Positions 15,145-25,084 of a DNA stretch of 64,000 bases are shown here, in pieces; within the stretch, counting starts at the first letter, position 1, and each line of letters opens with the position of its first letter. Both the position numbers and the translations under genes were made by a program. Under the pieces are notes generated by a model. The model did not search any database and was not told where the DNA came from. It was given only the letters and a program-made list of their open reading frames with translations. This DNA comes from an uncultured Veillonellaceae bacterium (GTDB lineage Bacteria > Bacillota > Negativicutes > JARBTT01): contig CAWDTA010000001.1 in the NCBI GenBank assembly GCA_963805085.1, positions 322,800 to 386,799 on the forward strand, given 5' to 3'.

Positions 15145-15394
15145 TTCTTATAGCCAAGGGTATTGAGATATTATCAGAAATTGACTGCGTGCGAAATGTA
15201 GTAATAACTTCATAAATTTAAGTTAAAAAATCGCCTAGAGATATGTTTCTAGACGGTTTTTTTGTTTAAATAGTATTCTTTTAAGGAAAATATAGGACTT
15301 TTGAAGGAGTTTATTGTCTTTGTATGGAATTTTATAGGTGGATTATACTTTGTTTAGTGTAAAAATTTAGACGAAGAGAAGCGTCACTTTGTAT
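15145..15394 (+). repeat. Degenerate array unit (eroded rlmD tail, terminator, promoter segment, type A site)
   Basis: GAAATGTAGTAATAACTTCATAAA...TCGCCTAGAGATATGTTTCTAG...TAGACGAAGAGAAGCGTCACTTTGTAT is homologous to units 1-3. Confidence 0.8.
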
Positions 15395-15575
15395 ATTAGT
15401 ATAAAGTGGGCATTGTAGATTTTAATGTAAAATATGAAAATGATTGTTTGAAAAATATTTTGTCCAAGTATGATATTGATGCATTAATTAAAAAACAGGT
15501 GAATAGTAAGAGCCAAAATAGCACAAGGAAAAAAGGAAACAATAAGCATAAATAATTATGCGAGGGAGTGTGAAA

Positions 15576-16589
15576 ATGCAATATTTATCTGAAAATAGTA
15601 TTTATGAAAACATACGAATAACTGTAGTAGAAGCACAGCAAAAAGTATATGCTACAGTTAACTTTGTAATGGTTGAAACTTATTGGAATATAGGGAAGCA
15701 AATATATGAAGCGCAAGGTGAAAATGAACGTGCAGAGTACGGAAAAGGTTTATTAAAGTTTTTATCAGAAAAACTTACGCAAGAATTTGGTAAAGGATAT
15801 ACTGTTACAAATTTAAAATATATGCGTCAATTTTATAATGCTTTTCCAAAACGTCACGCACTGCGTGACCAATTGAGTTGGACACATTATAGAATGCTTT
15901 TAAGGGTTGAAAATGATGCAGCTCGAATGTTCTATTTAGACGAATGCGCAAAATCAAATTGGAGTACAAGACAACTTGATCGACAAATAAATAGCTTTTA
16001 TTATCAGAGGCTGTTATCTAGTCAAGACAAAGATAGCGTGCGAAATGAGATTCAAACACTGGAAAAAGGTATTGATGCCAAAGATATTATTCGAGATCCA
16101 TATGTACTTGAATTTTTAGGATTAGAGCAAACACCTAATCTTTATGAAAAAGATATTGAGCAAGGTTTGATTGACCATTTGCAAAAATTCTTATTAGAAC
16201 TTGGACGTGGATTTTCATTCGTGTCGAGGCAACAACATATTACCTTTGATGGAGAGCATTATTATATTGACCTTGTTTTTTATAATTATATTTTGAAATG
16301 CTTTGTCATTATTGATTTAAAAATCGGTAAGCTGACACATCAAGACATTGGTCAAATGCAGATGTATGTAAATTACTACACAAGAGAACTAATGAATGAG
16401 GGTGATAACCTCCCTATTGGCATTGTTCTTTGCGCTGACAAAAGTGATTCAGTTGTTAAATATACTTTGCCTGAAGATAGCAATCAAATATTTGCATCGA
16501 AATATAAGTTATATATGCCGACAGAGGAAGAACTTAAACGAGAACTTGCAAAAGAACAGGAACTGTTAGAGCTGGAGCAGGAGCTATAA
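15576..16589 (+). CDS. YhcG/DUF1016 family PD-(D/E)xK nuclease-domain protein
   Basis: Motifs YWNIG, LSWTHY, IRDPYVLEFL, LLELGRGFSFVSRQ, IDLVFY, IDLKIG and DIGQMQMYVNY. Confidence 0.9.
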   Translation: MQYLSENSIYENIRITVVEAQQKVYATVNFVMVETYWNIGKQIYEAQGENERAEYGKGLLKFLSEKLTQEFGKGYTVTNLKYMRQFYNAFPKRHALRDQLSWTHYRMLLRVENDAARMFYLDECAKSNWSTRQLDRQINSFYYQRLLSSQDKDSVRNEIQTLEKGIDAKDIIRDPYVLEFLGLEQTPNLYEKDIEQGLIDHLQKFLLELGRGFSFVSRQQHITFDGEHYYIDLVFYNYILKCFVIIDLKIGKLTHQDIGQMQMYVNYYTRELMNEGDNLPIGIVLCADKSDSVVKYTLPEDSNQIFASKYKLYMPTEEELKRELAKEQELLELEQEL

Positions 16590-16743
16590 TAGGTGGAGAT
16601 GAAAATGGTTAATATAATTTACAGGCTACTACCTTCATTAAGTATAGATGAGTAGCAGAAATTGAATTGCATTTGAAGATTTAACATAGGAAGATATTAT
16701 ATAACAAGAAGTTAATGTAGTTTAGAAATGTGAGGGATGAACA

Positions 16744-22582: not shown

Positions 22583-24984
22583 GAAATGTAATCATTCAAA
22601 ATTTTCGTGGTTTTGGAGATGAAATTAATTTTGATTTTGAGGATAAATCTCTTGTTTTGTTTACTGCGCCGAATGGAAAGGGAAAAACGTCATTGTTAGA
22701 TGCTATAGAGTGGTGTTTGACAGGGAGTGTACAGCGATTATTATCTTCATATAATGACCGGAATTCTTCTACAAAAGAACAGGAGATGAAGACAAACCAA
22801 GAGACCATTTTAAAAAATAAAGAGCATTTATTGGAAGATACTATAGTCGAAATGGAGATTGAATTTAAGGGGAATATCTACTCCATAAAACGTATACAAG
22901 ATAAAGATACATTGGATGATGCAGGAAATGTGATTGTGCTTGATGAAAATAAAAATGAAGATAAATATTTATTAGATTGTTTATTAAATAGTGACAATTT
23001 TTATAAATATCATGTCTGCGATATGCAAAAAACATATAGATTTCTAAGTAATGGACGAGAAGATATGAATAATGAATTTTCAGATTTTCTATCCAACCAT
23101 ATGGGGGCCGAGAATGTAGTTGCTAATCTTAAGCTTTATTGTGATGATATTGTAGAACGAATCAAATTAGAAGAATTGAAAAAAGTTTCCTCAGAAACAT
23201 TGGAAGGCTATCGGGTTGCGCTTAATAAGTATGAAAATTCTCCAGAAATCCAAATATATAGTGAAGAAAAACTGTACTTGGATGAAAATACCGATGTGAA
23301 AAATATGAATGTTGAACAGTTGAATCATCAGTTGAGGGAGTTATATTCATGCGGTTTTATAAGAGCAGCTTCATTGTTAGAGCAACGGGTAAAGAGTGCG
23401 AAAACAGAAAAACTAAGACAAGAATTGAAAGAACTTGAAAAAGAAGTTTCTGAAAATTATACGTACATAAAAGAGGCCATTAAAAGCCATGCGAATGATG
23501 CTTCTGTTCGTAATACAGCTGAGGCCGAAGTGGCTAAACGAAAGGGTATTAATCTAAATGCTCGTAATTTGGTTGGTAATAGTGATGAACTAATTAAATT
23601 TAGAAATGACCACTTCACTAAAGAATATTGGGAAGAGAGTAATAAAAAGTATGAGGTTCTAAAAAAATCTATTACTGATTTGGAATCAGAAATTAGTACG
23701 CTACAAAAAGGAAATAAAATCTTAGATGTCTTGACCGCCATTACAGCTGGGAAAGAAGGCATAATTTTATATCGTGACGAATTACGAAAAACGGTAAAAA
23801 AAGTATATTGTCCTGTTTGTGGATCAGAACGATTTGGTATTATAGATAATGATGCTATGACCCAGAAAGCTCAGAACTATCAGGCAGAATATAAAGAGTT
23901 GTTGGAGAAGAAAAAGAAACAACAGCAATTGCTGAAAGACCAGGGAAGGAACATCATTGACGAGCAGTTAAAACGTGGAAATCTTGCACTGACAGAGTCT
24001 ATGGAAGCAGCTCAGAAAAAAGTAGATTTTCTGACACAGTTATATAATAAAACAAAATCATATTTTGCGAGTGTAAAAAAATTGCAAAACATTGATAAAG
24101 ATACTTATGCGCAAGAAAAAATGCTTTCACTAAAAAATATAGCAGAAGCCATAAATGAAAATAATAAGAATATACTTTCAGATGAAGAAAAAAAATCTAT
24201 AGAAATGGAGATGAAAAACCTATTTACATTATTGAATTATGCCTATGATGAAGGTATAGAAATAAGCGGAATTTTACAGGAGATTAACACTAGAATTGTT
24301 ATATCGGCAGAAAGTGTACACTATGATAAGGATTTGTTAAAAAAGAAAATAAGTTCTATTCGTAGCTATATTAATAATATAGAATTTCTAAATGTGTCCG
24401 ATAAGCTAAAAAAAGCACAAGCAAAAAATAAAGTCCAGGAAGAAAAAATTAAAAAATTAGAGGAGCTATCCAAAAGAGCTAAGGATCATAGAGCAAAGAT
24501 AAATGGTATGCTTAAGGATATTAAAGTTAATGAATATAAACAGGTAGGTCCTTATTTGTATAAGATTTTCCGAAAGCTATCTAGAGATATCAAGATATCC
24601 TCCTTTCAGCTAAGTGGAAGTGGTAGCAAGTTTCTGTCATTAACAGAGGAGAATGGAAAATCGATACTAAATATGTTTAGTGATGGACAACTCAGCGTAT
24701 TTATGCTTTCGTATTTCTTAGGTAATATATTGAGATTAAAAGGAAGTGAAGTATTTCCTGTTTATTTCATAGATGATATTACTGGCTGCATGGACGATAT
24801 TAATATGTTGGCATTTTTGGATCTGATAAAGTATCAACTTTCCAATGTTGATGGAGTATTTCAACAGTTATTTTTTGCTACTTGCGATAATCGTATTCGA
24901 GATTTGCTTTGTTGGAAAATGGATAGCTGTGGTATAGAGTATAAACAGCTGGGAATTAAAGAATTTGAAGCTAATTCTTTATAA
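22570..24984 (+). CDS. SMC/Rad50-like ABC ATPase (LmuB-like)
   Basis: IQNFRGF, Walker A APNGKGKT, coiled coils, zinc-hook CPVC, signature FSDGQ and Walker B YFIDD. Confidence 0.85.
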   Translation: MAAIRNVIIQNFRGFGDEINFDFEDKSLVLFTAPNGKGKTSLLDAIEWCLTGSVQRLLSSYNDRNSSTKEQEMKTNQETILKNKEHLLEDTIVEMEIEFKGNIYSIKRIQDKDTLDDAGNVIVLDENKNEDKYLLDCLLNSDNFYKYHVCDMQKTYRFLSNGREDMNNEFSDFLSNHMGAENVVANLKLYCDDIVERIKLEELKKVSSETLEGYRVALNKYENSPEIQIYSEEKLYLDENTDVKNMNVEQLNHQLRELYSCGFIRAASLLEQRVKSAKTEKLRQELKELEKEVSENYTYIKEAIKSHANDASVRNTAEAEVAKRKGINLNARNLVGNSDELIKFRNDHFTKEYWEESNKKYEVLKKSITDLESEISTLQKGNKILDVLTAITAGKEGIILYRDELRKTVKKVYCPVCGSERFGIIDNDAMTQKAQNYQAEYKELLEKKKKQQQLLKDQGRNIIDEQLKRGNLALTESMEAAQKKVDFLTQLYNKTKSYFASVKKLQNIDKDTYAQEKMLSLKNIAEAINENNKNILSDEEKKSIEMEMKNLFTLLNYAYDEGIEISGILQEINTRIVISAESVHYDKDLLKKKISSIRSYINNIEFLNVSDKLKKAQAKNKVQEEKIKKLEELSKRAKDHRAKINGMLKDIKVNEYKQVGPYLYKIFRKLSRDIKISSFQLSGSGSKFLSLTEENGKSILNMFSDGQLSVFMLSYFLGNILRLKGSEVFPVYFIDDITGCMDDINMLAFLDLIKYQLSNVDGVFQQLFFATCDNRIRDLLCWKMDSCGIEYKQLGIKEFEANSL

Positions 24985-25003
24985 AAGTGCCATGAATTAG
25001 TTT

Positions 25004-25084
25004 TAGACTGAGTGACGATTTGCAGTGCTATAATTAATAGACTGAGTGACGTCTAAAATACAAGGTGACGATTCTGTTTGTCTA
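25004..25084. repeat. Cluster of three REP-like sites closing the array
   Basis: TAGACTGAGTGACGATT (25004), TAGACTGAGTGACGTCTA (25038) and ATACAAGGTGACGATTCTGTTTGTCTA (25058, reverse complement of type A). Confidence 0.8.

Follow-up and report, generated by a model that had tools for sequence, protein, structure and literature searches.

It is textbook knowledge that an integrating phage can replace the tail of the gene it enters, and the systems closest to the locus described here concern DNA that accumulates behind a single gene. Tandem accretion, including that of cis-mobilizable elements (CIMEs), is represented by the integrative and conjugative elements (ICEs) ICESt1/ICESt3 at fda and by phage-ICE tandems at rum/rlmD. 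PMC13651849 records rlmD/rum as an integration hotspot, in line with the original prediction, and describes site-specific accretion into tandems there. In this work we analysed a 64,000-nt stretch of DNA from an uncultured Veillonellaceae bacterium (G000:C1:322800-386799; the whole stretch is referred to as the window), in which repeated 3' ends of rlmD alternate with cargo genes. We propose that the locus is an accretion island anchored on the rlmD 3' end, a variant of the known accretion islands.

The bacterium is a spore-forming member of the Negativicutes from the environment. Its genome, G000, is a 4.2-Mb metagenome-assembled genome (MAG) of five contigs with 37% G+C, 83% completeness and 6% contamination; C1 is a 387-kb contig. 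It was compared with a genome of the same genus (G001), a relative (G004), a related metagenome contig (L011) and further genomes of the class (G145, G098 and G028). The analysis was computational and used assembled sequences only.

Like the known tandems, the array is stacked in one orientation behind one gene, direct repeats containing the 3' end of the target gene bound each element, and members without an integrase exist there too. Unlike in those tandems, the repeat here is about 460 bp long rather than a short att core, and every border carries a repeat of the family associated with REP-associated tyrosine transposases (RAYTs; REP, repetitive extragenic palindrome). An integrase-bearing element using the same site was found neither in G000 nor in the stretches read of G004, G145 and L011, the other genomes not having been searched. 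Phage 21/e14 at icd is similar in that the incoming element brings a diverged, functional replacement tail and leaves the old one as a pseudogene; only one element is involved there, and it encodes an integrase, whereas at least five tails and no integrase are present here.

Staphylococcal cassette chromosome (SCC) elements rely on serine recombinases, the Ccr enzymes, and on short direct repeats. No Ccr-like gene was found here, the two resolvase-domain matches of the genome both lying off C1, but SCCmec resembles the present locus in its tandem cassettes, many of them for defence, behind an rRNA methyltransferase gene (rlmH) that is kept intact; PMC11470126 describes defence cassettes riding with SCC elements at that position. 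Integrons, to which the original prediction likened the array, share one-directional compact cassettes, an imperfect palindromic site a few nucleotides past the last stop codon, and frequent defence cargo. That likeness does not extend to the machinery: no IntI, attI or Pc is present, no IntI-type tyrosine recombinase lies by the array (PF00589 has three matches in the whole genome, none on C1), each slot repeats a piece of a host gene, and the sites belong to a RAYT repeat family. Our literature searches returned no description, and we know of none, that combines long tail-plus-intergenic repeats, absence of a recombinase and RAYT-family repeats at every border; a Streptococcus thermophilus island preprint mentions neither rlmD nor rumA.

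Repeat units behind rlmD

The full rlmD gene (455 aa), absent from the window, lies 11 kb upstream of it at G000:C1:310549-311916. Each full unit of the array consists, in order, of a 27-nt site (F), 76 rlmD codons plus stop, a G+C-rich terminator hairpin (T), an AT-rich stretch (P) and an inverted F site (R). The native gene is followed by the same terminator, the same AT-rich stretch and a degenerate R. The three full and two partial units first noticed in the window are all present, and the array is larger than was thought: it runs for about 37 kb from rlmD to window position 25084 and holds about seven slots with four full and three partial units of about 460 bp, one full and one partial unit lying upstream of the window. 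Over these 37 kb, rlmD and the four displaced tails share one orientation, and a BLAST search of the whole G000 genome placed every copy at this locus and none outside it (E values between units of 1e-157 to 1e-162), as opposed to a scatter over the chromosome.

Every full unit starts with TAGACT(G/A)AGTGA(C/A)G(G/A)TT(C/T)TCTTT(G/T)TCT, which is joined to the tail at the identical nucleotide. The junction falls between codons 378 and 379 of the 455 in rlmD, just ahead of a DPPR motif, and the repeat per slot comprises 77 codons and 220 nt of intergenic DNA. All five G000 tails (four displaced, one native) stay in frame for 76 codons plus stop and keep YVSCNP, in agreement with the original prediction. 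In the window, all on the + strand, unit U2 occupies 16880-17345 (F 16880-16906, tail 16910-17140, terminator 17173-17210, R 17317-17342), U3 19225-19689 (F 19225-19251, tail 19255-19485, terminator 19524-19549, R 19661-19686) and U4 19722-20190 (F 19722-19748, tail 19752-19982, terminator 20023-20048, R 20162-20187). U4 begins 32 nt after U3, and the gap of 32-35 bp between them is the empty slot noticed at the outset. Aligned with MAFFT, the full units of the window are 85-92% alike in long cores.

Two partial units lie in the window. That at 10767-10864 (+) keeps the AT-rich stretch and R (C1:333635, minus orientation), with neither tail nor terminator; that at 15193-15397 (+) has a terminator (15232-15255), the AT-rich stretch and R, directly preceded by the remnant of a deleted tail. 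Additional solitary sites include an F at 14659-14685 (+), 17 nt past the stop codon of a 160-aa open reading frame (ORF), and an R-like site at 15060-15087 (-), read directly in the sequence, with which it forms an F...R pair. Three stacked F-orientation sites at 25004-25084 (+), two truncated and one whole at 25057-25084, make up the right end of the array. The cargo is tightly packed, with F standing 17-29 nt past the last stop codon in three of the four whole slots.

With regard to expression signals, terminator-like hairpins are present in each unit as predicted (11 against 1.5 expected over 14600-20400), whereas the promoter that each unit was thought to carry gained no support from a consensus scan of the units (31 matches against 31.5 expected). 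At 15368-15397 and 20161-20190 the R sequence itself makes weak + strand promoter matches, which are a lead only. A small ORF within the AT-rich stretch was ruled out, the reading frames differing among units. An Rfam scan of 10000-29000 at gathering thresholds gave no match, and permissive scans of 25700-26400 and 14600-20400 gave chance-level matches only (E 0.2-1); no known RNA accounts for the conserved T-P stretch or for a non-coding module of about 280 nt. The latter (window 14686-14940; about 9700-9990 of locus L013 in G004) comes after an F site in either genome, with a terminator-like hairpin at its end; two contigs from a sediment run show its 3' end (14891-15009) at high depth.

An assembly artefact or a MAG chimera is a very improbable source of this arrangement. 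G000 is a MAG with 6% contamination, but its unit copies differ by 8-15% and are not collapsed or duplicated reads. Furthermore, the independent metagenome contig L011 carries rlmD, a metallo-beta-lactamase (MBL)-fold gene, one unit and a giant gene in the same order, and a soil-run contig contains the same junction of a truncated ATPase gene, F and tail at about 98% identity.

Selection history and mosaicism of the tails

Subject to the small codon counts behind all such ratios here, the ten pairs of G000 tails gave dN/dS of 0.06-0.23 at dS of 0.18-0.46, and the 21 codons adjoining F gave a pN/pS of 0.15 (22 synonymous and 10 nonsynonymous differences, Sd and Nd). Because the differences are mostly synonymous, the tails did not diverge as pseudogenes in place; each was recently a working gene end, and the low ratios between paralogous tails stem from the time spent in that state. 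Tandem duplication in place is ruled out on the same grounds. Once displaced, however, the tails drift. They have changed at sites where working genes do not vary, and in codons 1-21 the displaced tails show an Nd of 10 against their own native tail versus 0 among native tails. The orthologous pair t1 of G000 and L011, the only one sure to be displaced in both, has a pN/pS of 0.46 (Sd 5, Nd 8), as compared with 0.05 for the two working tails. An 'intact' tail is therefore one that was displaced recently and is not being maintained, and the expectation of tails free of neutral decay is borne out between tails but not for displaced orthologues. A silent-cassette system varying RlmD in the manner of pilins was considered and ruled out, since only 3-6 residues separate the tails and invariant positions of the motifs are among those altered.

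The units are mosaic. Among nine full units from G000, L011 and G004, 70 sites were informative and 856 of 2,415 site pairs were incompatible; a statistic akin to the pairwise homoplasy index (PHI) came to 0.282, whereas the permutations averaged 0.355. None of 2000 permutations was as low, neighbouring sites being more compatible than in any of them. Haplotype blocks cross genomes, in that the terminator region of U4 resembles that of G004 and the AT-rich stretch of 15193-15397 resembles that of G004's second unit. The exchange includes rlmD itself. Between G000 and L011, rlmD is 7.7% diverged, the downstream DNA 4.0% and the upstream DNA about 3%; the gene, more diverged than both its flanks, has been swapped by homologous exchange, with one crossover near the 3' end. 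About 22 kb just upstream of rlmD (C1:288047-310354, with a cytochrome c552 nitrite reductase gene) is present in G000 and not in L011.

How often was the junction made? The first codons past it carry the same synonymous variants as the working rlmD genes of relatives. We argue from these working-gene allelic variants, and from the non-neutral history of the codons beside the junction, that it was made more than once, on different alleles. Three junction types were found, each directly beside an F-orientation repeat: that of G000 and L011, one 12 nt upstream in G001 and a soil-metagenome contig, and one at motif I in G004, where the repeat is a variant. These observations bear on a simpler history, which we consider improbable, in which a repeat was joined to rlmD once by accident and all later units arose by unequal crossing-over and import, with no site-specific step. 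Mosaic units, the rlmD swap and the same junction nucleotide in all five F/tail copies of G000 and L011 would be expected from it, and ComEC and DprA are present, although this has little weight since, of 14 control genomes, 10 and 11 respectively give matches as well. It does not explain, however, why junction-adjoining codons have a purifying history and carry working-gene variants, why three junction types each lie beside a repeat, or why F subtypes do not track tail likeness (U2 and U4 share F variants, while the tail of U2 is closest to that of U3).

Searches with the tail peptide against 151 genomes of the class recovered orphan tails in G000 (four), G004, G001, G145 and G098, and possibly in G028. 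In G098, which belongs to another family, a stray 160-nt internal tail piece (L015 8391-8551, on G098:C96) is 88-93% identical to the G000 tails. G098's own rlmD tail is 71% identical at the protein level, and no repeats stand beside the stray piece, which looks like a scar of transferred DNA.

Border repeats and the making of the array

The 26-nt motif shared with F and R brackets two intact RAYT genes of about 250 aa elsewhere in G000 as inverted repeats, 801 nt apart in each pair; the arms are 26 nt long and 92% complementary in one pair, 29 nt and 76% in the other. A RAYT gene lies at C2:537731-538513. The NCBIfam model NF047646, 'REP-associated tyrosine transposase', scores these genes at 84.5 bits (L006:2729-3514) and 75.6 bits (L005:2777-3529) against a cut-off of 80. 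Both have the HUH (NHAHLL) and Tyr (RYIHKNP) motifs, of the forms HxH and YIHxNP. F and R are thus solitary copies of the terminal inverted repeats (TIRs) of a multi-copy transposon family of the RAYT type (HUH Y1, IS200-like). The earlier description of the sites as REP hairpins thus stands as regards the association with RAYTs, though not as regards the hairpin, which is weak.

A scan allowing up to five mismatches found 38 copies of the motif in G000 and none for the reversed control; of these, the array accounts for 12 (over 34.7 kb) and another mosaic region, at C2:2045-2105 kb, for seven. The AGACAAGG subtype mostly represents the ends of intact or decayed RAYT copies (29 RAYT-like matches in the genome), the F subtype AGACTRAG is found only in the two mosaic regions, and the R subtype ATACAARG mainly there. 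Any copy of the repeat pattern occurs in five of 401 Negativicutes genomes, and many copies in G000 alone; the family is lineage-restricted. Among genome contigs the repeat pattern had one record (a G001 contig), and the F/tail pattern was found at one locus among metagenome contigs.

REP/RAYT systems and RAYT-flanking TIR families (Di Nocera et al.) likewise have an HUH Y1 gene flanked by an inverted short repeat that also occurs alone in the genome. In contrast to REPs, there is no GTAG tag here (F and R lack a terminal GTAG and have GACG in the loop, as read directly), about 38 copies exist instead of hundreds, the RAYT is multi-copy with decayed copies in the manner of an insertion sequence, and solitary copies cluster at cassette borders and abut gene fragments. 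F and R are a better fit to the 'RAYT-flanking TIR family' (PMC3733652) than to classical REPs. Our literature searches found no description of solitary RAYT repeats at cassette borders that abut gene fragments.

F and R mark every breakpoint. To their left, F sites truncate genes: the ATPase gene in the array (a 47-codon Walker-A head at 16744-16884, +, ended by the F of U2, whose TAG serves as stop codon) and, on C2, the head of an ABC-F-like gene, while a permease-like ORF there runs into F. The remainder of the ATPase gene was not found in the genome, tblastn having returned only the fragment itself and weak paralogues, and the cut is therefore not a simple insertion. To the right of F sites lies one of a few recurring modules. 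All right ends share a single sequence, the 27-nt repeat, which is sharply delimited to its left and right. Past the solitary F sites no cleavage motif is conserved. The repeats are themselves targets of other elements. An IS110-family element lies inside a RAYT-family repeat at four of four junctions examined in G000 (C1:313546-315144, C1:15650-15732, C2:1470818-1472412 and C2:2070031-2070247; element ends CCTGCTAATAAAA... and ...TTTTATAGTACTAAA), one of them in a second repeat type (GGGACGTTCC...), found on either side of a further RAYT class. Some members of the IS110 family are known to target REPs, and the four junctions indicate that the repeats are recognised targets in G000.

The second mosaic region (C2:2045000-2105000; L008-L010) has mostly same-orientation F-type repeats between modules, among them repeated pieces of about 450 bp with an ORF of about 95 aa (MVKSVFD...) beside XRE-type regulators. 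In G004 the small-ORF module is also present behind rlmD, and in G001 it adjoins the tail fragment.

The 387 kb of C1 encode no recombinase of the tyrosine or serine type, and the matches in the genome as a whole (three for PF00589, two for PF00239) all lie elsewhere, which extends the original remark that the window holds no integrase. Together with the 27-nt repeat as the only sequence common to the right ends, and with F at gene-truncating breakpoints, this puts the main suspicion on a RAYT that acts in trans. In its strongest form, this idea describes an integron-like system, in which the HUH transposase would cut and rejoin single strands at F and R, excise [tail-T-P-R-cargo-F] circles and insert them at the rlmD point or at another F, with F/R in the role of attC. 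G000 has both the repeat family and RAYT genes that are intact, the repeats are strongly concentrated at cassette borders, three independent rlmD-fragment junctions abut one, truncated F sites are stacked at 25004-25084 as if joined repeatedly, and the mostly same-orientation F sites of the C2 region and the tight cargo packing would also fit. We nevertheless regard this system as unlikely. Its hairpins are weak and catalysis at F/R is putative, no cleavage motif is conserved past solitary F sites, G004 lacks the cognate RAYT, the 8-15% divergence of units within the genome gives no sign of recent copying, and no unit occurs outside the locus. Moreover, no RAYT shown to carry cargo turned up in literature searches, and none is known to us.

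Another explanation dispenses with the RAYT altogether. Elements borne by an integrase (ICEs, integrative and mobilizable elements or prophages) may have integrated serially at the rlmD 3' end, each restoring the gene, and then decayed to CIME-like islands, with the RAYT repeats as later bystanders or deletion end-points. Duplicated, diverged tails with a signature of selection are the residue expected of such events, as with phage 21/e14 at icd; G145 has an independent tail duplication with a metal-resistance island that lacks these repeats; and defence systems gather in islands of this kind, as in G004. The recorded hotspot and the 'site-specific accretion' into tandems described at rlmD/rum (PMC13651849) also speak for it. 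Yet there is no tyrosine or serine recombinase on C1 and only five matches in the whole assembly, the cassettes are 1-5 kb long without phage or conjugation genes, and the right ends share only a sharp-edged 27-nt repeat where longer integrase arm sites would be expected. It is improbable that at least five elements all lost their integrase and that every one of them left F precisely at the tail, and we consider this origin, too, to be unlikely.

The account that we favour as the simplest to fit all these data, though tentatively and at somewhat less than even odds, has two layers: repeated insertion at one rlmD point with a replacement tail, and then homologous shuffling, the enzyme being left open. 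New DNA would be joined at the fixed point between codons 378 and 379, ahead of DPPR. The incoming piece would carry a replacement for the last 77 codons, followed by terminator, AT-rich stretch, R, cargo and F. The former working tail would thereby be displaced downstream behind F, where it would drift, and repeats of the process would give the alternation of tail-T-P-R, cargo, F and tail-T-P-R. The units of about 460 bp would then serve as portable homology, through which recombination within the cell and with imported DNA could reshuffle, delete and swap cassettes, and even rlmD. Such recombination between units explains the mosaicism, the rlmD swap, the adjacent U3 and U4 and the position of a spore photoproduct lyase gene in mid-array. 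The anatomy, the identity of the repeats, the selective past of the tails, the mosaicism and the differences among relatives are observed; that a site-specific process formed the junction again and again, with a RAYT in trans as its agent, we infer.

Several points weigh against this two-layer account. First, the lyase gene is 84% identical between G000 and G004 and stands mid-array in the former and beyond the last tail in the latter, which means that simple one-way stacking at rlmD is insufficient without later shuffling. Second, the junction-making enzyme is at most a candidate: none is tied to the junction, the cognate RAYT is absent from G004 (best match 43% identical) although G004 has the architecture, and we know of no RAYT that moves cargo. 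Third, the DNA hairpins that F and R can form are weak, with folding energies from -0.5 to -3.7 kcal/mol and z scores from +1.2 to -1.6, so that a hairpin-dependent HUH reaction is not supported. Fourth, the geometry is inverted. The RAYT genes, the tail units and 14659-15087 are flanked F...R, while the cargo is flanked R...F (diverging); the unit, and not the cassette, thus has the geometry of a transposon. In this the units and 14659-15087 match a miniature inverted-repeat transposable element or mobile insertion cassette, but there is no copy outside the locus and no target duplication was seen on direct reading. Fifth, only about four related genomes or contigs are comparable, the central genome is a MAG, and the metagenome joints come from short contigs placed at 85% likeness over repeated DNA, which we used only as signs of other adjacencies.

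Cargo, relatives and implications

The slot next to rlmD holds the MBL-fold gene and is followed by the fourth full unit, whose R is interrupted by an IS110-family remnant; a near-identical half-unit comes next. The third slot behind rlmD is filled by a 5,823-aa collagen-like ORF (+), a single open frame from L001 12515 to window position 10186, so that its 3' part occupies window 1-10186. It consists almost entirely of GxT triplets with an 18-bp period, has globular ends and lies near the lyase gene; L011 has a collagen-like giant gene at the same place. The giant is similar to BclA-type proteins of the exosporium. The slot at 11903-14641 contains a 169-aa ORF (+), the spore photoproduct lyase gene (12891-13979, -; PF20903, E 2e-105) and the 160-aa ORF (+).

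Defence-type genes follow. A YhcG-type PD-(D/E)XK nuclease gene (15558-16589, +) matches Pfam at E 1e-60 and the PADLOC candidate system PDC-S02 at E 4e-146. The 608-aa ORF at 17369-19195 (+) has no Pfam, NCBIfam or PADLOC match; its Atlas look-alikes include a DUF4365 cluster, and its possible DUF4365-like nature is a lead only. A Lamassu-like operon (20355-24984, +) encodes an LmuA-like protein of 514 aa with a DUF4297 head (E 1e-10), an unassigned 228-aa middle protein and an LmuB SMC-type ATPase of 804 aa (E 1e-35); PADLOC thus finds the pairing of LmuB with LmuA that identifies Lamassu. The defence array originally predicted is in this respect supported by YhcG and Lamassu, but only three of about seven slots have defence-type genes, and the others hold the MBL-fold hydrolase, the IS110 remnant, the collagen-like protein and the lyase. 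The G000 cargo is mixed, and the array is not purely a defence array.

To the right of the array, outside it, lies an ORF of the HEPN_LA2681 type (37024-37527, E 8e-36), as does a transposase gene of the IS110 family that is intact and encodes 426 aa (32586-33866). At 25760-26000, past a 192-aa ORF, summed depth is far above the surroundings in four of four metagenome runs, with many small indels; this stretch, for which no Rfam family was found at E below 0.5, may be a widely shared or multi-copy sequence.

Cargo and order vary among relatives, as had been anticipated. L011, 94-97% identical, has one unit, with neither the IS110 remnant nor the extra half-unit. In G004, whose rlmD is 86% identical, rlmD is followed by HEC-05, two transposase-like ORFs, a longer second tail, Mokosh and Gabija (E 1e-190 to 1e-247) and an F-type site. 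Pieces of the array also occur in contigs of soil, groundwater, sediment and peat runs. One such piece, about 97.5% identical, is a YhcG cassette preceded by an AT-rich stretch and R; in a soil contig the 280-nt module runs straight into the F of a U3-like unit, skipping 4.3 kb, a contig of run X3 has the same DNA right of 25083 with a different left flank, and some metagenome contigs break exactly at repeat edges. Twenty sequencing runs were compared, each sharing only 5-10% of the sequence words; most of the 608-aa gene and of Lamassu was without cover in runs X1-X4, which we counted as evidence neither way, and depth figures were likewise left unused.

What the array means depends on the part played by its border repeats. 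It is possible, though doubtful, that a RAYT in trans joins cassettes with their own rlmD tails at the fixed rlmD point and at other F sites, building defence arrays as IntI does with attC. If the repeats are indeed working sites, the capture of cargo would become a function of RAYT-type enzymes, which until now have been known only for the spread of the short repeats that belong to them, and there would be a second, integrase-free route to defence arrays. Even on the conservative reading, the locus illustrates how an insertion hotspot becomes, through long gene-tail repeats, a scaffold for homologous recombination on which Negativicutes of soil, groundwater and peat swap anti-phage systems.

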